A DNA stretch of 64,000 bases from Terriglobia bacterium (GTDB lineage Bacteria; Acidobacteriota; Terriglobia; JAJPHL01). Shown here in pieces: positions 3,047-63,361 of this stretch. The DNA lies in assembly GCA_021325275.1 (NCBI GenBank), contig JAJPHL010000033.1, positions 63,291-127,290 on the forward strand. Reading direction: 5' to 3'. Each line of letters opens with the position of its first letter. The stretch's first letter is position 1. The position numbers were made by a program, and so were the translations under genes. Under the pieces are notes generated by a model, which did not search any database, was not told the origin of the DNA, and worked only from the letters and a program-made list of their open reading frames with translations.

Positions 3047-3451
3047 ATGAAAACTGAGTTGCTGACCTTCAACGGCGCCGTCGAGCGCGATCCCGCCATC
3101 GAAGCGTGGATGAAAAAGCATCGCGGTGAACCCGGTGCGATGGCGCGCGAGTGGTTCGAGGTGATGCGCGCGTGCGGCGACGAAGTCCGCGAGCTTGTGC
3201 ATGATGGTTGTCCCGTGGCATGTTTCGGCGACGTGCCGTTTGCGTACGTGAACGTCTTCACGTCGCACATGAACGTGGGATTTTTTCAAGGCGCATCGCT
3301 GCCGGATCCGGCGCGACTGCTACAGGGCGAAGGGAAATACATGCGTCACGTGAAGCTGAAACCCGGAGCGGCCGTAAACGCCACCGCACTCCGCCAGCTG
3401 ATCGAAACGGCGTACGCGGACATCAAATCGCGCGTCGAGCACGGCTTCTAA
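3047..3451 (+). CDS. DUF1801 (YdhG-like) domain protein
   Basis: 134 aa with the layout typical of DUF1801 proteins (DPAIEAWMKKH...FEVMRAC...NVFTSHMNVGFFQGASLPDP...). Good ORF in GC-rich context. Confidence 0.6.
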   Translation: MKTELLTFNGAVERDPAIEAWMKKHRGEPGAMAREWFEVMRACGDEVRELVHDGCPVACFGDVPFAYVNVFTSHMNVGFFQGASLPDPARLLQGEGKYMRHVKLKPGAAVNATALRQLIETAYADIKSRVEHGF

Positions 3452-3460
3452 TGGTGCTGT

Positions 3461-3570
3461 CTTAGTTTGAATTCTAGCGGCTCCGCCGCAGGAAGGTGGC
3501 TCCAGTCCCTCGGAAAGGCAAAGCCTTTCCGCACAAAGTAGCGGCGGAGCCGCTAGAAATTCAAACTAAG
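3461..3570. repeat. REP/MITE-like nested palindromic element (family copy 1)
   Basis: Outer 29-bp inverted repeat cttagtttgaattctagcggctccgccgc / gcggcggagccgctagaaattcaaactaag enclosing an inner perfect hairpin cggaaaggcaaagcctttccg. The same core motifs (gcggctccgccgc, tttgtgcggaaaggc...gcctttccg) recur at ~18.6 kb and ~60.9 kb. Confidence 0.75.
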
Positions 3571-3592
3571 ACACCACGCTTCTAATCGGAAA

Positions 3593-4429
3593 CTAGCTTT
3601 TGCTTCCGCTCACGATCAGCACTTCCGCGGGGAAACTCACACCGTTACCGCTCGAATACCCACGAAACAAATCGATTGCTTGGCGTTTCGCCTCCGCCAT
3701 TTGCTCCGCGGACAGCCCCGCGACGCGTTCCTTCAGCGATTCCGACAACTCCAGCCGCAGCGTCCAGAGTTCTTCCACCGAAATCGGCGCGGCGATGTTG
3801 AATCGGTGGATTCGCTCCGAGGCGTCGCGCACTCCTGCCTCGCGAAACACCTCGAGCAACGCGCCGGGACGCGCAAAGCGGAACATGTCGCCGTTCGGCG
3901 GGGGAGGCACGGGTTCAACGTAGCGATCGATCACTCGCGAGAGCGTGTGAAAGAACGCATTGCTCTCGGAGGTATGCCAAACCGCCAACGCGAGTTTTCC
4001 ACCGGGCTTCAGGACTCGCAACATTTCGCGGACTCCATCCACGGGCGACGGAAAAAACATTATGCCGAAACGGCTGACCACAGCGTCGAATGTTGCGTCG
4101 GGAAATGGCAGATGGTCCGCGGGAGCCGCGTCGAACTTTGCGTTTGTGAGGCCGCGGCGTTCCGTTTCGCGTCGCGCGGCTTCGATCATTGGCGCGACGA
4201 CATCGGTTCCGTGAACTCTGCCCACCAACGGCGCGATGCTCAAAGCAGGCTCGCCGGGACCCGTCGCTACGTCGAGAACTGTTTGTCCTCCGGAGATCCG
4301 CGCGTCTTCGATCAGCGCATCGGTTACCGGAGCGAACATTCCCTTGATGATCTCGCGATGCTTCTCCCAATACTGAGCCGCATCACTCCATCGTTGGACC
4401 TGGTCTTTGGGGTCTGGGCTGGACGGCAT
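3593..4429 (-). CDS. class I SAM-dependent methyltransferase (UbiE/Methyltransf_11-like)
   Basis: Motif I VLDVATGPGEPA and post-I DATFDAVVSRFGIMFF...LKPGGKLALAV. 278 aa. Confidence 0.85.
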   Translation of the reverse strand: MPSSPDPKDQVQRWSDAAQYWEKHREIIKGMFAPVTDALIEDARISGGQTVLDVATGPGEPALSIAPLVGRVHGTDVVAPMIEAARRETERRGLTNAKFDAAPADHLPFPDATFDAVVSRFGIMFFPSPVDGVREMLRVLKPGGKLALAVWHTSESNAFFHTLSRVIDRYVEPVPPPPNGDMFRFARPGALLEVFREAGVRDASERIHRFNIAAPISVEELWTLRLELSESLKERVAGLSAEQMAEAKRQAIDLFRGYSSGNGVSFPAEVLIVSGSKS

Positions 4430-15886: not shown

Positions 15887-17326
15887 TTATTTGCTTTCGG
15901 TTGCGGTTGGTTCGGGCTGTACTTGCGCGTCGAATGGGACGGTTAGGACCTGGCCCTGATACCGCACCTGAACCCAGATCCGATAGGCGCCCGGTTGCGG
16001 GAATCCGTAAGGAAAGGAGACGTCCGGTGCAATCTCATTCACGCCGGCATGCATCATGCTGTGATCCCCGAACGCCATCAGTGACGCCATCGGTACCGTT
16101 CCCGATGGGTGCACGTGCGCGAAGACCGAAAGATCGCGTTTCGCAATCACGGCGTGTCCGGCCATGCCCATGTATAGTTGCGTGCTCGGCACGGGTTTGC
16201 CGCTCGCGTCGAGTAAACGGAAATCGAGCGAGTAAGGACGACGAGCAACAAGCGTGGCCGGACGATCCCAGACGAGTTGCAGTCCGTTGGGTAAGGGCGC
16301 GGCGAAAGAATCGTCGGAATCGTTCAGCGTGCCAGTCGCAGTGGCCGCGCCCGCGGGAATCTGCAACTCGCCGGCGGGCGTTTCCGGAAATCCGCTCTGA
16401 TGCACGACGTCCGCGAACACACGATAGTCGCCGGGCGGCGCGGGCGGAAGCGGCGTTTCATAGCGCGCTGGTCCCGTGCGTTTGGGATGCAAATGATAGA
16501 ACGCGTCGAAATCGGGATAGCGCACGAGGAACAAATGCATCAAGTGCCCGTGATCTTCCACAAAGTCGTCGATGCTTCGCCAATGCATGATGCTGGGATC
16601 GCGCAAGCTCACCACGAGTTTGCCGCCTTCGATCGCAGAATCGAGACGCAGCGGCTGGTAAATATGATTCGCAAAGCTCGACGCTTCGGCGCTCCACCAG
16701 GAATTGCCCAACCACACGACCGCAGCGAAGGCCACAAGCGATACGGCCATCGCAATGCGCGCTTTGCTCCGCGATCGAGCGTCGGGCGGCGCGCCGGGCG
16801 TCAACTCGGCTTCGCGCACCGCCGCGCCGACAACGTTCACCGCGCCGATCACCAGAAACATCATGAGTCCGAAGAGCAAAATGCCCATGCCGCGCGGCAT
16901 CCCCAGCACGGCGCGCGACGTGGAGGGCGTGGGCACGCTCATTACGCCTTCGCCGCGCGATCCTTTGGCGATCACGCGAACGTCATAGGATCCGGTGCCC
17001 ATGAACCAGACTTGTCCGGTGAAGTATTGCGGATCGCTCGAGGATTGCTTAAGCACGTCCGGCACCGGCGCGCCGAGTTTCTGCGTGGCGTAAGTGATCG
17101 GCTGAATCTTCAGCGACGGGATTTCGCCCGGTGCGAGTTTTCCACGCAAGTACACTTCGACTTCGGCGATCCCCGGCACGATCGCCGGCGGTCGCACGAC
17201 CACGGTCATGTTGTAGGGACCCGCTTTGCCTTCGAGGTAGACGTCGGGACTTCCCACGTGTGCTGACAGCGGAAGGCAAAAGGCAAAAGTCAAAAGGCGA
17301 AAGGCAAAAGTGCGGAAGGGCTTCAT
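15887..17326 (-). CDS. hypothetical exported His-motif-rich protein (possible metal-binding), distal gene of a two-gene operon
   Basis: Signal peptide MKPFRTFAFRLLTFAFCLPLSAHV. Conserved-looking His clusters (EDHGHLMHLF, YHLHPK, GMAGHAVIA, FAHVHPSG, HSMMHAG). One TM mid-protein. Its start overlaps the upstream gene's stop (ATG/TAA share 1 nt). Start trimmed 8 codons from the supplied ORF. Confidence 0.65.
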   Translation of the reverse strand: MKPFRTFAFRLLTFAFCLPLSAHVGSPDVYLEGKAGPYNMTVVVRPPAIVPGIAEVEVYLRGKLAPGEIPSLKIQPITYATQKLGAPVPDVLKQSSSDPQYFTGQVWFMGTGSYDVRVIAKGSRGEGVMSVPTPSTSRAVLGMPRGMGILLFGLMMFLVIGAVNVVGAAVREAELTPGAPPDARSRSKARIAMAVSLVAFAAVVWLGNSWWSAEASSFANHIYQPLRLDSAIEGGKLVVSLRDPSIMHWRSIDDFVEDHGHLMHLFLVRYPDFDAFYHLHPKRTGPARYETPLPPAPPGDYRVFADVVHQSGFPETPAGELQIPAGAATATGTLNDSDDSFAAPLPNGLQLVWDRPATLVARRPYSLDFRLLDASGKPVPSTQLYMGMAGHAVIAKRDLSVFAHVHPSGTVPMASLMAFGDHSMMHAGVNEIAPDVSFPYGFPQPGAYRIWVQVRYQGQVLTVPFDAQVQPEPTATESK

Positions 17327-18589: not shown

Positions 18590-18955
18590 GAGTGTTGCGG
18601 CTCCGCCGCTGTTTTGTGCGGCCTTGGGTCCACGCTCTTTTGTGGGGGCTTCATGCGGCTCCGCCGCTGCTTTGTGCGGAAAGGCTCAGCCTTTCCGGCG
18701 AACGTCAACTCCGAATTGGGCAAGGCCGCGCCTTGCCCAATCCATCGGGCGCGATTAAACTACGGGTCGGCCCGAAGATTATCGATGGTCAAGTGTACGT
18801 TTCTGGACGCGTGGCGCGCGCGACGACGAGCCCTTGGTTCCAGATCATGACCAGATCGTGTGGCGGTCGGCGGGCAAGGCGTAGCCTTGCCGAGGTGCGA
18901 GCATCTTCGGAAAGGCAAAGCCTTTCCGCACAAAAGGAGCGGCGGAGCCGCTCGC
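18590..18955. repeat. cluster of REP/MITE-like nested palindromic elements (family copies 2a-2c) filling a 520-bp intergenic region
   Basis: Contains gcggctccgccgctgttttgtgcgg, gcggctccgccgctgctttgtgcggaaaggctcagcctttccgg, the palindromes ttgggcaaggccgcgccttgcccaa and gggcaaggcgtagccttgcc, and cggaaaggcaaagcctttccgcacaaaaggagcggcggagccgc. Same motifs as at 3461-3570 and 60851-61020. Confidence 0.75.
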
Positions 18956-26345: not shown

Positions 26346-26834
26346 ATGAAACCCGAGAATGCCAAAGTAGTCGCCGAGTTTTTAGCCAAGGATCTGGAAC
26401 ACGAGTATCAAACCACGTGCCGCGTGCTGGCCGCGCTGCCCGACAACCAAATGGGTTGGCAACCGCATGAACGCGGCATGAAGGCCGGCGAACTGGCTTG
26501 GCACATCGCCACGTCGGATTGCTTTTTCCTATCGTCGATCGCCAACGGCGAGTTTGCACCGCCCGCGAAAGTGGAGCAGCCCGCAACCACGGCGGAAATC
26601 GTGGCCTTTTACCAGAAGACGTATCCGGCGCTACTCGAAAAATGCAAGAATCTGTCGGGGGAACAATTGGTGAAGGAACTGAATTTCCTCGGAATCTTCG
26701 TGTTCCCGACGGTGATCTTTTTGAACTTGGCGGGAAATCACTCCATCCATCATCGCGGACAACTTTCAACGTACTTGCGCGGCATGGGCGCGAAAGTGCC
26801 GAAGATCTACGGACGCAGCGCGGACGAGCAGTAA
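26346..26834 (+). CDS. DinB family (DinB_2/DUF664 four-helix bundle) protein
   Basis: AWHIATSDCFF...HSIHHRGQLSTYLR, i.e. the characteristic His triad and HxxxHRGQ C-terminus. Confidence 0.75.
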   Translation: MKPENAKVVAEFLAKDLEHEYQTTCRVLAALPDNQMGWQPHERGMKAGELAWHIATSDCFFLSSIANGEFAPPAKVEQPATTAEIVAFYQKTYPALLEKCKNLSGEQLVKELNFLGIFVFPTVIFLNLAGNHSIHHRGQLSTYLRGMGAKVPKIYGRSADEQ

Positions 26835-27916
26835 TGCAGAGCTGCAAGGCAAAAGGCAAAAGGCAAGAGGCAAAAGGCAAAAGTGAACGCGCCTTGTCCT
26901 CAATTTTCACCTTTTGCCTATTGCCTGTGTCCTTTTGCCTTCCGTTCAACCTTCAAGCCCAGCGCATAAAGGTCGCGCTCGACGGTTCCGGCGACTACCG
27001 GACCGTCCAGGCCGCCGTGGACGCCGCGCCGGCCGCGGGCGCCGTGATCGACATTGCGCCCGGTTTGTACTACGAACGTTTGCGCATCGAGAAACCTTCG
27101 ATCACATTTAAGGGTTTGGGGAAATCTCCCGCCGACACGATTCTCAGCTATGACTTGAGTTCGGGCACGGCCGGCGGCACCACGAAATCGGCGAGCGTGA
27201 CAGTAACCGGCGACGATTTTCACGCCGAGAACTTGACGATCGAAAACACGTTCAGCCGCAATCGCCCGTTGACGCAGGAGGGCAGCCAGGCCGTCGCGAT
27301 CAAGGTGATGTCCGATCGTGCGATCTTTCGCCGCGTGCGTTTTCTCGGATACCAAGACACGCTGTACGCCGACGGCAAGGGCTGCGATTCCGATCAAGGG
27401 CCGTGCCGTCCGGCGCGCCAGTATTTTGTGGATTGCTACATCGAAGGCAACGTCGATTTCATTTTCGGCGACGCCGTTGCGTTCTTCGAGAGCTGCGAAC
27501 TGCACGGATTGGCTCACAAACAGGTGATGCTTTCAGCGCAGAGCAAACGTTACGACGGCGAGCAGAGCGGATACGTCTTCGATCATTGCCGCGTGACGGC
27601 GGAAGCCGGAGCCGATCACATTTGGCTGGGGCGTCCGTGGCGATCGCACGCCAGTGTCGTGTTCATGAACACGGAATTGCCGGCGCAGATCGAACCGGCC
27701 GGATGGTCGGAGTGGATGCACAACGAGAAGCCGTCGCTGCCCACGGTTTTCTACGCGGAGTATCACAACCGCGGTCCGGGCGCGAAGGCGGACGCGCGCG
27801 ATCCGCACGCGCGCCAGCTCACGGCAGAAGAAGCGCACAAGTTTTCGGCGGCCGTGTGGTTGGCAGGCGACGATCACTGGAATCCTGCGGGGAATCAGAA
27901 AGACAAAACGAAATGA
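26834..27916 (+). CDS. pectinesterase (CE8 pectin methylesterase), secreted
   Basis: CE8 blocks (GSQAVAI, QDTLY, DFIFG...LGRPW...). Its start overlaps the DinB gene's stop (TAATG). The N-terminus is a Lys-rich n-region plus hydrophobic h-region signal peptide. Confidence 0.8.
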   Translation: MQSCKAKGKRQEAKGKSERALSSIFTFCLLPVSFCLPFNLQAQRIKVALDGSGDYRTVQAAVDAAPAAGAVIDIAPGLYYERLRIEKPSITFKGLGKSPADTILSYDLSSGTAGGTTKSASVTVTGDDFHAENLTIENTFSRNRPLTQEGSQAVAIKVMSDRAIFRRVRFLGYQDTLYADGKGCDSDQGPCRPARQYFVDCYIEGNVDFIFGDAVAFFESCELHGLAHKQVMLSAQSKRYDGEQSGYVFDHCRVTAEAGADHIWLGRPWRSHASVVFMNTELPAQIEPAGWSEWMHNEKPSLPTVFYAEYHNRGPGAKADARDPHARQLTAEEAHKFSAAVWLAGDDHWNPAGNQKDKTK

Positions 27917-36212: not shown

Positions 36213-36230
36213 GAAAAGCGCTCGCGGCGT

Positions 36231-36313
36231 TGTCAGAACCATTCGCGGTAGCGAATCGGCGCGCTGCCCATGGATGCGCGATCCCATCCGCTACCGCGGA
36301 TGGTTCTGACAAC
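36231..36313. promoter_or_regulatory. 23-bp inverted repeat (tgtcagaaccattcgcggtagcg ... cgctaccgcggatggttctgacaa) enclosing a 36-bp GC-rich loop; terminator or PadR operator
   Basis: One mismatch between the arms. Sits directly after the GT-C-like gene's stop and 25 nt upstream of PadR module 2. Confidence 0.45.
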
Positions 36314-44785: not shown

Positions 44786-44816
44786 CCCATTCGCTGGCGC
44801 GAATGGTTCCGACAAT

Positions 44817-52802: not shown

Positions 52803-53918
52803 TTGGGGGACAAAATGATTGGCAAGTTTTCCACGGCGCTAGCGCTGCTGGCGATTTTCTCGGGAGCTCAAACAAAAGTGACTCAACAACCTTTCGGCAA
52901 GATGAAGGACGGCCGCGCCGTGGAGATTTACACCCTCAGCGACGGCAAAGTGGAAGCGCGCATCATGACCTATGCGGGCACCATCGTGTCGCTCAAGACG
53001 CCGGATCGCAACGGCAACATGGCCGACGTGACGCTCGGCTTCGATTCGCTCGACGGCTATCTGGGCAATCATCCGCACTTCGGCGCGCTGATCGGCCGCT
53101 ATGGCAATCGCATCGGCAAGGGACATCTTGTCGTCGATGGCAAGACGTATCAGTTGGCGCTGAACAACGGTCCCAACACGTTGCACGGCGGCACCGAGGG
53201 ATTCGATCGCAAACTTTGGAAGGGCAAGGCGATTCCCAACGGCGTCGAGCTGGAATACGTGAGTCCCGACGGCGAGGAGCATTTTCCCGGCACGCTCACC
53301 GTGATTGTTCGCTACACGCTGGTGGGCGGCGCGCTGCGCATCGACTACTCCGCCACCACCGACAAAGATACGGTCGTGAATCTTACCAATCACGCGTACT
53401 GGAATCTCGCGGGCGAGGGCTCGGGCGACGTGCTGAACCAGGAAATGCAAATCAACGCCGGCAAATTCACGCCGGTGGACGACGGCCTGATTCCCACGGG
53501 CGAACTAAAGCCGGTCGCCGGCACGCCGTTCGATTTCACCAAACCGAAAGCCATCGGCAAGGACATCGCGAGCACCGACGAGCAAGTGGTCCGCGGCAAA
53601 GGTTTCGACCACAATTTTGTGCTGGACAAGAAATCGATGAACGGCCAGTTGGTGCAGGCGGCCGTGGCGCACGATCCCGCGTCGGGACGCACCATGGAAA
53701 CATGGACCACCCAGCCGGGCGTCCAGTTCTACACCGGAAATTTCCTCGACGGCACGATCCACGGCAAGAGTGATCACGTCTACGCGCGGCGAAACGCGTT
53801 TTGTTTAGAGACGCAGCATTTCCCGGACTCGCCGAATAAACCCGAGTTTCCCTCGACGCTGTTGAAGCCGGGCCAGAAGTATCACACCGTGACGGAATAT
53901 CGCTTCTCCGCGAAATAA
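52803..53918 (+). CDS. galM: aldose 1-epimerase (galactose mutarotase), secreted
   Basis: Signal peptide. GalM blocks GFD...HPHFGALIGRYGNRI, TLHGG..GFD...W, NLTNHAYWNL, F.LETQHFPDSPN. Confidence 0.85.
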   Translation: MGDKMIGKFSTALALLAIFSGAQTKVTQQPFGKMKDGRAVEIYTLSDGKVEARIMTYAGTIVSLKTPDRNGNMADVTLGFDSLDGYLGNHPHFGALIGRYGNRIGKGHLVVDGKTYQLALNNGPNTLHGGTEGFDRKLWKGKAIPNGVELEYVSPDGEEHFPGTLTVIVRYTLVGGALRIDYSATTDKDTVVNLTNHAYWNLAGEGSGDVLNQEMQINAGKFTPVDDGLIPTGELKPVAGTPFDFTKPKAIGKDIASTDEQVVRGKGFDHNFVLDKKSMNGQLVQAAVAHDPASGRTMETWTTQPGVQFYTGNFLDGTIHGKSDHVYARRNAFCLETQHFPDSPNKPEFPSTLLKPGQKYHTVTEYRFSAK

Positions 53919-54053
53919 TTTGGAGTGCGGCGACTCGTCGCCGCTTTGTTAGCCCGCGGCTTGACGCGGGCCGCGCTTCGCGTAGTTACAAACCAGGCGC
54001 GCGAGTCGAGCCTCGCGGCGTCGAAAGCGGCGACAAGTCGCCGCACTCCAAAT
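53919..54053. terminator. cluster of five stem-loops; outer 30-nt arms are inverted copies (tttggagtgcggcgactcgtcgccgctttg / gaaagcggcgacaagtcgccgcactccaaa); bidirectional terminator or REP-like element between convergent genes
   Basis: Each outer arm is itself a hairpin (gcggcgac N3 gtcgccgc). Inner palindromes gcccgcggcttgacgcgggc and gcgagtcgagcctcgcg. Begins right after the galM stop. Confidence 0.55.
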
Positions 54054-60850: not shown

Positions 60851-61020
60851 CGCTTTGCGGCTTCGCCGCTGCTTTGTGCGGAAAGGCTTGGCCTTTCCGA
60901 AACGCCTTTAAATACTTTCGCAAGGCTGGGCCTTGCGCGCGAGGCACAGCCTCGCCAAATGCAAATGCAGATCCGGAAAGGCACAGCCTTTCCGCACAAA
61001 GTAGCGGTGGAGCCGCAAGG
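60851..61020. repeat. REP/MITE-like nested palindromic element (family copy 3)
   Basis: gcggcttcgccgctgctttgtgcggaaaggcttggcctttccg ... ccggaaaggcacagcctttccgcacaaagtagcggtggagccgc with an internal palindrome caaggctgggccttg. It begins 13 nt after the ADOP stop. Confidence 0.75.
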
Positions 61021-61124: not shown

Positions 61125-62456
61125 ATGTCTAACGCGATTAGCCGCCGGGAGTTCAACAAACGCGCCGCCGCCGTGGCCGCTGCTTTCGGACTCTCCAACT
61201 TCGACATTCCGGAACTTTTTCCCACCGTTCACGCCGCCTCCGAGCCCGTGAAATGGGCCATGATCGGCACCGGCACGCGCGCGCTCGATTTGTTGCGTCC
61301 GCTCAGCACCAACACCGGCGGTCAATGCGTGGCTCTTTGCGATATTTATCCGCCCAACCTCGAACGCGCCGCGAAAACCATCGGCGGGAGCCCCACGCAT
61401 TACGACGACTATCGAAAAGTCCTCGAGCGGAAAGATGTGGAAGCGGTGATGATCGTGACGCCGCTCGATCGCCACGCCTTCATGACGCTCGACGCGTTGA
61501 GCGCCGGCAAGCACGTCTTCTGCGAGAAGACCATGGTGTTCAAGGAGCAGGAAATCGCCGCGTTGCGCGAAGCCGTCGCTGCACATCCCAAGCAGGTTTT
61601 CCAAGTAGGATTGCAGCGCCGCTACAGCGAGATCTACCACATGGGCATGCAGATGATCCGGCGCGGCGCATTGGGACGCGTCACGCACTGCTATGCGCAT
61701 TGGAATCGTAACAGCGATTGGCGGCGTCCCGTGGCCGACGCGAAACTGGAGCGCTTGATCAACTGGCGCATGTACAAGGAATATTCCGGCGGCCTGATGG
61801 CCGAGTTGGGATCGCATCAAATGGACATCGCGGGATGGGCGTTCCAGGCCGATCCGCGCTCGGTGATCGGCACGGGCGGCATCGATTATTGGAAGGACGG
61901 CCGCGAAGTTTACGACAACGTCAGCGTGATTTTCGAATATCCCGAGGGACAAAAAGCCGTTTTCACGTCGATGCTGAACAATCAGCATTACGAATTCGGC
62001 GAACACTTGTGCGGCGACGGCGGCACGATGGAGTTGACCTTGGCGGGTCCCAGCGGCACCGGAACGTTTTGGGTGGAACCGAAAGCCAAGGCCACGGCGG
62101 CCGCCGGGAAAGCGAAAGAACAATGGTGGGCCGGCGCGACGGTCAGCGCCAGCGCGACGCAAAAGGGCATGCCGATTTTCCCGGATGAAATCGGCGAAGA
62201 CATGCCGTTCATGGATCGCGAGCGCGCCTTCGGACGCCGCTGGTTAGCGCAGCGCGGATGGTACGAGGTCACCGAACCGAAGAATCCGGTGGGCACGCAG
62301 TTCGAGCATTTTTTCATGTGCATTCGCGAAGGCAAGCATCCGTTGTCGGACATCAACGTGGGCGCCTCAGACGCCGAAGCGGTGGTTTACGCGAATCAAG
62401 CGATGGACGAGAATCGCCGGGTGTTCTGGCCGAAATATCGGGACCAAAAGGGCTAG
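61125..62456 (+). CDS. Gfo/Idh/MocA family oxidoreductase with twin-arginine (Tat) signal peptide
   Basis: SRREFNKRAAAVAAAFG Tat motif. Rossmann block WAMIGTGTRA...ALCDIYP and the EKP-like motif FCEKTM of the Gfo/Idh/MocA family. 443 aa. Confidence 0.85.
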   Translation: MSNAISRREFNKRAAAVAAAFGLSNFDIPELFPTVHAASEPVKWAMIGTGTRALDLLRPLSTNTGGQCVALCDIYPPNLERAAKTIGGSPTHYDDYRKVLERKDVEAVMIVTPLDRHAFMTLDALSAGKHVFCEKTMVFKEQEIAALREAVAAHPKQVFQVGLQRRYSEIYHMGMQMIRRGALGRVTHCYAHWNRNSDWRRPVADAKLERLINWRMYKEYSGGLMAELGSHQMDIAGWAFQADPRSVIGTGGIDYWKDGREVYDNVSVIFEYPEGQKAVFTSMLNNQHYEFGEHLCGDGGTMELTLAGPSGTGTFWVEPKAKATAAAGKAKEQWWAGATVSASATQKGMPIFPDEIGEDMPFMDRERAFGRRWLAQRGWYEVTEPKNPVGTQFEHFFMCIREGKHPLSDINVGASDAEAVVYANQAMDENRRVFWPKYRDQKG

Positions 62457-62463
62457 AACAAAA

Positions 62464-62540
62464 GCAACCGCAGATGAACGCAGATAAACGCAGATTCGGA
62501 ATTGTGTTATCTGCGTTCATCTGCGTTTATCTGCGGTTGC
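62464..62540. repeat. 77-bp near-perfect palindrome built from tandem CGCAGAT(G/A)AA heptamer/decamer units, spanning the ApbE start codon and signal-peptide coding region
   Basis: Left arm gcaaccgcagatgaacgcagataaacgcagat and right arm atctgcgttcatctgcgtttatctgcggttgc (2 mismatches), with a 13-nt loop. Begins 8 nt after the oxidoreductase stop. Confidence 0.7.
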
Positions 62541-63361
62541 TTTCGTTTGGTCTTGCCGCGCAGGAAATCCGCTATGAGGCTTCCCATGTTTCCATGGGAA
62601 GCGAATATCAAATCGTGGTCTACGGACCGAATCGCGCGGTTCTCGCCGAAGCGTGCGAGCAAGCGTTCGCCGAGATCGATCGCCTGGACGATTTGCTCAG
62701 CAACTACAAACCGCAGAGCGAACTTTCGCGCGTGAATGCGACGGCCGCCAAAGGTCCCGTGAAAGTCACGCCCGAGTTCTTCGACTTTCTTCGCGTCTCC
62801 GACGAGTTTCGCCGCCAAACGTTCGGCGCCTTCGATATCACCCTGGGACGCGGCCGGCTCTCGCTCGATACGCGCAACTCCACCGTCGAGTTCACGACTC
62901 CAGAAGTCAAACTCGATCCCGGCGGCATCGGCAAAGGACTGGCCGTCGATCACGCCATCGACATTTTGAAAGCGGCCGGCATCAAGCGCGCGCTGGTGAG
63001 CGCCGGGATGAGCACGATCAACGCGATCGGCACGCCGCCGGGCGAAGATCAAGGATGGAAGATCACGATTCGCTCGCCGAAATCGAAGGACATCGCGGCG
63101 GCGACGGTATATCTGAAAGACAATTCGTTGAGCACGTCCGCAACGTACGAGAAGGGCCGCCACATCATCGACCCTCGAACCAAAAAGCCCCCGGAAAATG
63201 GTGTCGAGGCCGTTTCGTCGATGGCCATCACCGGAACGGAGTCCGACGCAATCACGAAATGCTTTTTTGTTCTCGGGCGCCAGGGCGCCTCCGCGTTTTT
63301 GCGCGCGCATCCCAGCGATCGCGCGTTGGTGTGCGACCCGGAATGCTCCTGGGTGAAGTGA
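62474..63361 (+). CDS. FAD:protein FMN transferase (ApbE family), exported
   Basis: Signal peptide MNADKRRFGIVLSAFICVYLRLLSF. ApbE blocks ...HVSMGSEYQIVVY..., LDPGGIGKGLAVD, STSATYEKGRHIIDPRT. Start set at Met 72 codons into the supplied ORF, because the upstream part overlaps the Gfo gene. Confidence 0.8.
   Translation: MNADKRRFGIVLSAFICVYLRLLSFGLAAQEIRYEASHVSMGSEYQIVVYGPNRAVLAEACEQAFAEIDRLDDLLSNYKPQSELSRVNATAAKGPVKVTPEFFDFLRVSDEFRRQTFGAFDITLGRGRLSLDTRNSTVEFTTPEVKLDPGGIGKGLAVDHAIDILKAAGIKRALVSAGMSTINAIGTPPGEDQGWKITIRSPKSKDIAAATVYLKDNSLSTSATYEKGRHIIDPRTKKPPENGVEAVSSMAITGTESDAITKCFFVLGRQGASAFLRAHPSDRALVCDPECSWVK

Follow-up and report, generated by a model that had tools for sequence, protein, structure and literature searches.

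A miniature element with IS1-like ends around a REP hairpin core in Acidobacteriota

We analysed 64,000 nucleotides of a Terriglobia bacterium (Acidobacteriota; assembly GCA_021325275.1, contig JAJPHL010000033.1, forward-strand positions 63,291 to 127,290; hereafter, the window), in which a family of nested palindromes occurs at three loci, all intergenic. Locus 1 (3441-3600), the main subject of this study, lies between convergent genes for a DUF1801 protein and a methyltransferase, locus 2 between two minus-strand genes, and locus 3 3' of an FtsX/MacB-type permease gene. Locus 1 is an internally deleted member of a sub-family of miniature inverted-repeat transposable elements (MITEs) with IS1-like ends and target-site duplications (TSDs), and its core is built from repetitive extragenic palindromic (REP) units. 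The features of locus 1 are given below, with the three hairpins of a REP unit designated H1, H2 and H3 (primed where inverted) and the terminal inverted repeats abbreviated as TIRs.

3444-3452, no strand: left copy of the TSD, GCTTCTAAT, 9 bp, read directly, including the DUF1801 stop codon TAA (3449-3451); in the anchored test described below it gave a perfect 8/8 flush match, vs 0% in 210 permuted flank pairs
3453-3476, plus strand: left TIR, GGTGCTGTCTTAGTTTGAATTCTA, IS1-like, with 2 mismatches to GTRGTGKSTCAGTTTGA; arms kept in 8 sister copies
3477-3489, plus strand: H1 of the left REP unit, GCGGC-TCC-GCCGC; the remainder of the unit is deleted, with ~90 nt absent from the alignment directly after it
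3490-3510, no strand: spacer AGGAAGGTGGCTCCAGTCCCT, which separates the central palindrome from the right-hand H2 in full-length copies
3511-3553, minus strand: complete right REP unit (nhmmer score 45.4), read on the minus strand as H1 (3541-3553), linker TACTTTGTG (3532-3540) and H2 CGGAAAGGC-AAA-GCCTTTCCG (3511-3531)
3554-3577, minus strand: right TIR (reverse complement GTGGTGTCTTAGTTTGAATTTCTA), with 1 mismatch to the IS1-like inverted-repeat pattern
3578-3586, no strand: right copy of the TSD, GCTTCTAAT, 9 bp, read directly

Read on from the DUF1801 stop codon, the order within locus 1 is GGTGCTGTCTTAGTTTGAATTCTA-GCGGCTCCGCCGC-AGGAAGGTGGCTCCAGTCCCT-CGGAAAGGCAAAGCCTTTCCG-CACAAAGTA-GCGGCGGAGCCGC-TAGAAATTCAAACTAAGACACCAC. 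The MITE copy itself occupies 3453-3577 (125 bp) and holds no element-specific open reading frame (ORF), and full sister copies are ~213 bp long. The outer inverted repeat (3453-3489 vs 3541-3577) spans ~37 bp, interrupted by one bulge and one mismatch; an earlier note on this DNA had seen the repeat but measured it at 29 bp, and it had placed the element 10 nt after the DUF1801 stop codon, whereas it starts 2 nt after it. Folded as single-stranded DNA, positions 3449-3596 reach -50.7 kcal/mol, compared with -18.4 +/- 2.9 in shuffles (z = -11.2). The gap between the two convergent stop codons was 7 nt before insertion, and the insertion doubled the last DUF1801 codons together with the stop.

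End-to-end alignment with eight full sister copies revealed that locus 1 lacks ~90 internal nt, so that the left H1 abuts the AGGAAGGTGG spacer. The deletion is common to all copies of locus 1 (four assemblies), and near-identical contigs of the locus come from a soil metagenome (the 157-kb contig Ga0070734_10000206, JGI 3300005533) and a metagenome-assembled genome (MAG; GCA_037024795.1). Two independent short-read contigs (L003 and L004) both end 88 nt past the DUF1801 stop codon, inside the locus 1 hairpin (~3539), which indicates that the element breaks short-read assemblies. A further contig (L124, 4570-5113) carries IS1-like ends, a left H1 and a right spacer-H2'-H1' as in locus 1, with an unrelated ~440-nt palindrome-rich insert exactly at the locus 1 deletion junction. 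This common junction (after GCCGC and before A[G/A]GAAGGTGG) could be a site of microhomology or of enzyme cleavage.

The repeated unit found at the three loci is ~44 nt long and consists of GCGGCTCCGCCGC, a TTTGTG linker and the hairpin CGGAAAGGC-N3-GCCTTTCCG. With a loop of 3-5 nt, the hairpin pattern CGGAAAGGC-N3-5-GCCTTTCCG had five matches in the window (3511, 18677, 18908, 60879 and 60974) vs 0.00 expected (0/100 shuffles), and GCGG(C/T)T(C/T)CGCCGC with at most one mismatch had 12 vs 3.6 expected, seven of them in the three loci. All modules that the earlier note had described as shared among three sites were present where it placed them. The repeat-finder families D3, D6 and I1-I4 connect the three loci through stretches of 44-48 nt that are 89-93% identical. 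Five units are full (18654-18697 and 60856-60899 on the plus strand; 3511-3553, 18908-18951 and 60974-61017 on the minus strand) and two are partial (3477-3489 and 18596-18620), and the inverted pairs of units are 210 nt apart at locus 2 and 74 nt apart at locus 3.

To profile the family more widely, a collection with one genome per species was scanned for TGTGCGGAAAGGC-N3-5-GCCTTTCCG. At least 117 stretches matched, several per MAG and nearly all labelled Acidobacteriota, including Pyrinomonadaceae and other Blastocatellia, Chloracidobacterium, Terriglobia and subdivision 13; a few matches had odd taxon labels. The aligned unit reads H1 (GCGGC-TNN-GCCGC), a linker, H2 (CGGAAAGGC-TNN-GCCTTTCCG), ~20-25 variable nt and H3 (GAGGC-TNN-GCCTC; GGCAAGGC-NNN-GCCTTGCC in the window lineage). 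Most lineages have the linker CYGATGTG, and that of the window has TRCTTTGTG. Since H2 formed part of the search pattern, its conservation partly reflects that selection, whereas H1 and H3 lie outside the pattern and are still conserved. A profile of H1-linker-H2 detected 195 full units in 117 loci, arranged as 64 '+-' pairs, no '-+' pairs and nine tandem ones, with a spacing peak at 73-93 nt.

The three named hairpins were paired in 94.9% of the alignment cells, a share that fell to 39-50% when the partner was slid by 1-3 columns, and compensatory changes on both sides of a stem were found in 107 cells vs 29.7 in shuffles (0/500 shuffles as high). Stem bases co-vary, and the apex GGC-TNN-GCC is kept as sequence. 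A GTAG/CGTC tetranucleotide at the hairpin foot is not conserved, GTAG being present beside H1 only in some window-lineage units (CAAAGTAGCGGC). No window match reached the gathering score in Rfam 15, only generic hairpin (miRNA-model) matches far under threshold appeared at locus 1 by E-value, and ARAGORN reported no tRNA or tmRNA among the motifs in the window. Given their repetition in extragenic DNA and their inverted doublets, these units are a REP family with the geometry of REPINs, as doublets of inverted REP units are called.

The cognate gene of this family is that of a REP-associated tyrosine transposase (RAYT), an HUH-Y1 enzyme. Wide pairs of units (599-729 nt) each enclose one ~185-aa ORF with the motifs DHLH (...YAYVIMPDHLHLI...), WE (...YSLWE...), YIHQNP (...NYIHQNPVRAGL...) and YRWSS. 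It passed Pfam Y1_Tnp (E = 1.6e-5 and 8e-9) and the NCBIfam equivalog NF047646 'REP-associated tyrosine transposase' (REP_Tyr_transpos; 84.8 bits vs a cut-off of 80), and its best solved structural relative is E. coli TnpA-REP (4ER8), aligned across the HUH and Tyr motifs. The gene was found between inverted units in seven loci (L079, L090, L071, L021, L073, L118 and L125). A protein search returned 1532 RAYT homologues at E <= 1e-20, many named RayT by JGI. All four homologues that were fetched by protein identity only have H1-linker-H2-H3 upstream and an inverted unit downstream, in unrelated gene neighbourhoods, and in the RAYT loci found by protein H2 has the compensated form CGGAAAGCC-NNN-GGCTTTCCG. 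In most RAYT loci the stop codon lies within the H3' loop (GGC AAG GCN TAG CCTTGCC). Most RAYT protein clusters are on 1-2 contigs (contigs, not complete genomes), and between classes the proteins are 48-69% identical with H2 identical to the letter, though H2 was partly selected by the search. By analogy with TnpA-REP of E. coli, S. maltophilia and Marinomonas (PMC8266576), this RAYT would recognise folded hairpins in single-stranded DNA and copy REPINs.

REP-bearing and RAYT-bearing contigs were also detected in MAGs labelled Paceibacterota, Actinomycetota, Planctomycetota and Heliomicrobium (L014, L062 and L099; L020; L021 and L027). L014, L062 and L099 share one REP unit that is identical together with its flanks (45 nt upstream, 30 nt downstream). 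The oddly labelled contigs are probably mis-binned acidobacterial ones.

To characterise the ends of locus 1 we turn to its closest relatives. A metagenome scan for the linker variant of the window returned 43 stretches. Some are on large contigs of the same sample or a sister one, and several of these contigs resemble the window in tetranucleotide composition (r = 0.975-0.984). Eight carry a ~213-nt element that reads GGTGGTGTCTCAGTTTGAATTTCTAG, H1, linker, H2 (GGAAGGGC/GCCCTTCC), palindrome, AGGAAGGTGGCTCCAGTCCTT, H2', linker, H1' and CTAGAAATTCAAACTGAGACACC, in which H2 is the compensated variant and the stem of the central palindrome is 17 bp. At least 13 independent MITE copies are flanked by direct repeats of 7-10 bp, all different (including ACTCAAAAG, CGGCTTCCA, GAAGCCGC, CGCTAGAG, CTCTTCACG, CACAATCC, GCCGGTTG, CTATTCCGGT, AACGATTA, GCAGAGAA and CTCAATTG). 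In the anchored test, the element ends of 15 candidates were set from the conserved core and 210 mismatched flank pairs served as the control; six of the 15 had perfect 8/8 matches and one had 7/8, vs 0% and 0.5% of the permuted pairs, respectively, and in several of the failures the fixed boundary had cut into the repeat. No flanking repeat was found in 67 of 78 REPINs without IS1-like ends, and duplications are likewise missing from most RAYT units that lack these arms.

A REPIN with different outer arms was found in a Terriglobia MAG (SPRUCE 48; L103, 3233-3489). Its arms of ~33 nt (GGCTGTTCAAATTAGCG...) are flanked by a perfect 10-bp direct repeat, CGAATGATCG, and arms of this type are also present in L011, L026 and L085. 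This is possibly a second, independent packaging of a REPIN into a MITE of another insertion sequence (IS).

The earlier note had called the family REP/MITE-like, and both halves of the name stand: units flank a cognate RAYT gene in many Acidobacteriota, and the copy at 3461-3570 has the IS1-like TIRs and the 9-bp TSD of a non-autonomous mobile element. Its two doubts, that the motifs might be restricted to three sites or might be fragments of a tRNA or another non-coding RNA, are answered by the at least 117 stretches of the wider motif search and by the lack of any tRNA or Rfam match in the window. It had left open whether fold or sequence is conserved; the stems keep the fold by co-variation and the apex keeps its sequence.

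The Y1 mechanism of IS200/IS605-type elements is described as involving neither TIRs nor larger target duplications (PMC2817692). Since a Y1 enzyme would not be expected to make target duplications, IMG/VR was scanned for the end 17-mer of the MITEs. The 17-mer GTAGTGGGTCAGTTTGA was found in at least 120 IMG/VR stretches and its variant GTGGTGTCTCAGTTTGA in 15, as inverted pairs 0.2-4.8 kb apart with flanking duplications of ~9 bp. Several sister MITEs have GTAGTGGGTCAGTTTGA letter for letter, and the window copy differs from the GTGGTGTCTCAGTTTGA variant by 1-2 mismatches. At least a fragment of one ~300-aa transposase is enclosed by 14 of 22 pairs, and seven of the 22 enclose at least 200 aa. 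This protein scored 31 bits against Pfam DDE_Tnp_IS1 (cut-off 24.1), JGI and NCBI annotate its homologues as IS1 family transposases, and a protein search with it returned mostly gammaproteobacterial relatives, which does not in itself place the family inside Acidobacteriota. In the IS1 family, target duplications are 8-9 bp long. Ends of the form GGnnnTG, duplications of 8-10 bp and a length of up to 4.6 kb with passenger genes probably fit this family and, within it, the long ISMhu11-like subgroup of ISfinder. Because the arms are the ends of DDE elements that make duplications of ~9 bp, we take the arms of locus 1 to be IS1-like terminal repeats.

The IS1-like elements with ends GGTAGTGGGTCAGTTTGAA (L248 130-2978, L186 1544-3964 and others) occur in at least 120 IMG/VR stretches; many have passenger ORFs beside the transposase and many others are short and MITE-like. 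No REP units were carried by the IMG/VR elements. Tetranucleotide composition did not tie these loci convincingly to the window organism (best r = 0.94).

Loci 2 and 3 are other states of the same REP-RAYT system, with the following features.

18596-18620, plus strand: partial REP unit of locus 2 (H1 and linker only), repeat family D6
18654-18738, plus strand: left REP unit of locus 2, with H1-linker-H2 at 18654-18697 and H3 GGGCAAGGC-CGC-GCCTTGCCC at 18718-18738
18759-18884, plus strand: relic of a RAYT gene at locus 2, its last ~40 codons (...GRPEDYRWSSVRFW...IVWRSAGKA*), found by tblastn
18873-18951, minus strand: right REP unit of locus 2, with H3' at 18873-18891 and H2'-linker-H1' at 18908-18951
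60856-61017, no strand: locus 3, a complete plain REPIN, with H1-H2 at 60856-60899, H3 at 60920-60936, H3' at 60940-60954 and H2'-H1' at 60974-61017

At locus 2, positions 18759-18881 translate to TTGRPEDYRWSSVRFWTRGARDDEPLVPDHDQIVWRSAGKA, and the stop codon TAG (18882-18884) lies within the H3' loop. The relic matches the C-terminus of intact RAYT proteins (tblastn, 58.5% identity over 41 aa, E = 1.3e-8) and that of L125 in particular (63% identity over 38 aa, E = 1.1e-8), with the first ~145 RAYT codons missing. Locus 2 is a former RAYT locus, whose gene was deleted to its last ~40 codons. The arms of locus 3 are 45 nt long and 89% complementary (repeat family I4), and the locus folds to -67.5 kcal/mol (z = -8.6). 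Neither IS1-like ends nor a target duplication were found at locus 3.

Given these patterns, locus 1 is in all likelihood a non-autonomous MITE with IS1-type ends around a REP core, and an IS1-like DDE transposase acting in trans is its likely mover. The element has two layers. Its core is a REP/REPIN family, two inverted units forming a REPIN and the same units bracketing the RAYT gene, and RAYT would cut and rejoin next to hairpins folded in single-stranded DNA, as E. coli TnpA-REP and IS608 do. In the end layer, in the lineage of the window, a REPIN is packaged between terminal repeats of the IS1 family (GGTRGTGKSTCAGTTTGAA...) to give the ~213-bp MITE, which an IS1-like transposase supplied in trans probably moved. 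Duplications of 7-10 bp are the signature of staggered cuts by DDE enzymes, and from this we infer that such a transposase is the most likely mover. The MITE would have landed in the 7-nt gap between the DUF1801 and methyltransferase genes, at a site that before insertion would read ...CACGGCTTCTAAT|CGGAAACTAG... with a single GCTTCTAAT; by duplicating GCTTCTAAT, the insertion would have regenerated the DUF1801 stop codon. A later loss of ~90 internal nt would have joined the left inverted repeat and H1 to the spacer, H2', H1' and the right inverted repeat.

How the two layers met is suggested by L125, in which degenerate versions of these IS1-like ends lie on either side of an intact RAYT gene (~16/20 on the left, ~12/19 on the right), with an imperfect 7/9 flanking repeat. 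Because of this bracketing, L125 suggests that RAYT and its REP units were once passengers between IS1-like ends and that the MITE arose through gene loss. The broader version of this idea is rather doubtful, namely that the REPIN-RAYT system rides on IS1-family DDE ends and that gene loss left a REPIN-cored MITE, spread by an unrelated transposase.

Several observations weigh against the favoured reading of locus 1. A tblastn search of the window and of ~1.3 Mb of acidobacterial loci detected neither an IS1-like transposase nor an intact RAYT. At several positions the ends of the window copy depart from the commonest IS end, and the best NCBIfam model for the transposase, 'IS1 family transposase', scored 68.9 bits, under its curated cut-off of 100. 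The IMG/VR elements come from unknown hosts, with a best tetranucleotide match to the window of r = 0.94, and the composition of L125, which has an intact RAYT and the same REP variant, correlates with that of the window at r = 0.948; L125 may belong to another genome than that of the window. The action of RAYT on these hairpins is known only by analogy with other systems. No empty site was found for locus 1, all contigs with an identical DUF1801 gene carrying the element, and no synteny with DUF1801 was seen in the two methyltransferase relatives that were looked up. Relatives of the flanking methyltransferase reach no more than 65% identity and carry Terriglobales/Acidobacteria labels, which makes the organism an acidobacterium with no close relative sequenced.

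Of the competing explanations, the one that survives best holds that the composite is a one-off accident, in which a REPIN was inserted into or recombined with an IS1-derived MITE and the two layers are functionally unrelated. REP units and IS1-like ends are indeed apart in most of the data: plain REPINs dominate other lineages, IMG/VR has IS1-like elements without REP units, and REP dimers nested in longer palindromes have been reported in other bacteria (PMC3733652). Against it, the composite has multiplied as a unit, with at least 13 copies at distinct target duplications that keep both layers, and the L125 RAYT locus carries the same arms. We regard this as possible, though not as the favoured account; it concerns the origin of the element rather than its present nature and is compatible with the reading of locus 1 as an IS1-type MITE. 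A single nested insertion followed by amplification is an alternative for that origin.

It is considerably less probable that the palindromes are primarily a selected cis structure, i.e., a bidirectional terminator, a stabiliser of mRNA 3' ends or a protein-binding site, with mobility incidental. The folds are very stable (z = -11.2 at locus 1 and -8.6 at locus 3), stems are kept through compensatory changes, and the window copies all lie just 3' of stop codons or between genes. H1 followed by TGCTTTGTG was picked once as terminator-like, but the big hairpins lack a U-tract and terminator-like matches were no more frequent than in shuffles (1 vs 0.6 and 1 vs 0.9). The consensus scan for terminators found none on the locus 1 hairpins and one weak site at H1 of locus 3, and it lends no support to the terminator and mRNA-stabiliser roles that the earlier note had listed. 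No Rfam family matched, units occur in both orientations beside unrelated genes, and conserved stems are equally expected of single-stranded DNA hairpins recognised by a Y1 enzyme, whereas the TIRs and TSD, the internal deletion of locus 1 and the link to a transposase gene point to selfish DNA. Given their place at gene ends, some of the hairpins might still have been exapted.

The remaining alternative, a pure REPIN moved by RAYT alone, with an HUH-Y1 enzyme making the 8-10-bp duplications and the arms being the ends of a RAYT unit, is very improbable and was dropped: the intact RAYT of L125 does lie inside degenerate versions of the same arms with its 7/9 flanking repeat, and the RAYT unit of L021 has an 8/9 one, but the arms are identical to the letter with the ends of IS1-like DDE elements whose duplications are also ~9 bp long, none are seen at REPINs or most RAYT units that lack the arms, IS200/IS605-type Y1 elements are described as having neither TIRs nor larger target duplications (PMC2817692), and a 9-mer with one mismatch arises at a control rate of 4%, which leaves L021 alone weak.

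Other repeats were seen in the window. An inverted doublet at 53918-54053, with 30-nt arms that are 97% complementary and 76 nt apart and that each hold a hairpin GCGGCGAC-NN-GTCGCCGC of their own, looks like a second REPIN-like family. Inverted arms of 36 nt at 36229-36313 (13 nt apart, 86% complementary) have an arm that recurs 8.5 kb away (44786-44815), which indicates a further family of small palindromic repeats. The heptamer GGCAAAA forms arrays at 17259-17312 and 26832-26944, the latter followed by an inverted copy (26846-26882 with 26905-26941, 84% complementary). A palindrome of 10-nt units (ATCTGCGTT[T/C]A and its complement) at 62457-62555 lies ~200 nt inside a predicted ORF (62258-63361).

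To our knowledge, work on REPINs and RAYTs has been confined almost entirely to Proteobacteria, where they are portrayed as long-lived partners that pass vertically with the host. The system described here belongs to a poorly studied soil phylum, and for its three-hairpin unit we found no published description. Within 64 kb it is seen in three states: as a plain REPIN (locus 3), as a RAYT locus that has lost most of its gene (locus 2) and as a REPIN turned into the MITE of an unrelated DDE element (locus 1). The partnership of REPIN and RAYT is usually described as strictly vertical and moved by its own Y1 enzyme only. Here a second transposase is apparently able to spread the REP hairpins, which bears on how such repeats persist and cross between lineages. 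If REPIN-RAYT systems do ride on IS1-like ends, REPINs would have a second, faster and horizontally transferable route of spread, which could help to explain the same REP hairpin in different classes of the phylum, and the interest would rise if RAYT systems travelled regularly in this way. For practical annotation, the hairpins could pass for terminators or small RNAs in acidobacterial MAGs.

A literature search with the hairpin sequence returned only unrelated primer matches; for REP and RAYT in Acidobacteria, the papers found cover TIRYT genes whose motifs differ from those seen here, 'class 3' TnpA-Y1 and, for three species, generic REP counts. The view of the earlier note that the family is probably undescribed agrees with the literature searched, except that the RAYT genes had already been named RayT by annotation pipelines. 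Locus 1, a dead element, is selfish DNA of two known kinds in an apparently undescribed combination.

Among known systems, the REPIN-RAYT systems of Pseudomonas, E. coli and Stenotrophomonas are similar in having extragenic palindromes in inverted doublets, units that flank one HUH-Y1 gene, stems with compensatory changes and, as at locus 2, a RAYT that decays while the repeats stay. They differ in that the unit here comprises three hairpins in succession, all with a GGC-TNN-GCC apex, instead of one, that it has no conserved GTAG/CGTC tag, and that the host phylum is Acidobacteriota; the RAYT motif set (DHLH/WE/YIHQNP/SS tail) mixes subclasses 2.2 and 2.6 of PMC6006769. TIRYTs or 'TIRtrons' are RAYT-like genes flanked by long inverted repeats, including acidobacterial ones (Di Nocera et al. 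2013, PMC3733652). That study also describes REP dimers that are regularly nested in longer palindromic arms, the arms never occurring alone, which resembles the nesting at locus 1; unlike here, its acidobacterial TIRYT motifs are HVH and LHxNPV...WSSF, and it gives neither target-site duplications nor a link of the arms to a DDE insertion sequence. IS200/IS605 elements share a Y1 HUH protein and hairpin repeats, whereas the system here has no TnpB partner, its gene looks single or low copy, and locus 1 has both the TIRs and the target duplications that those elements lack (PMC2817692). MITEs derived from DDE elements are likewise small and non-coding, with TIRs of the parent type and duplications of 8-10 bp at many unrelated sites. 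Unlike them, the parent IS was not seen in the data of the window genome (window searched), and the interior here is not a remnant of a parent IS but the REPIN of a Y1 system.

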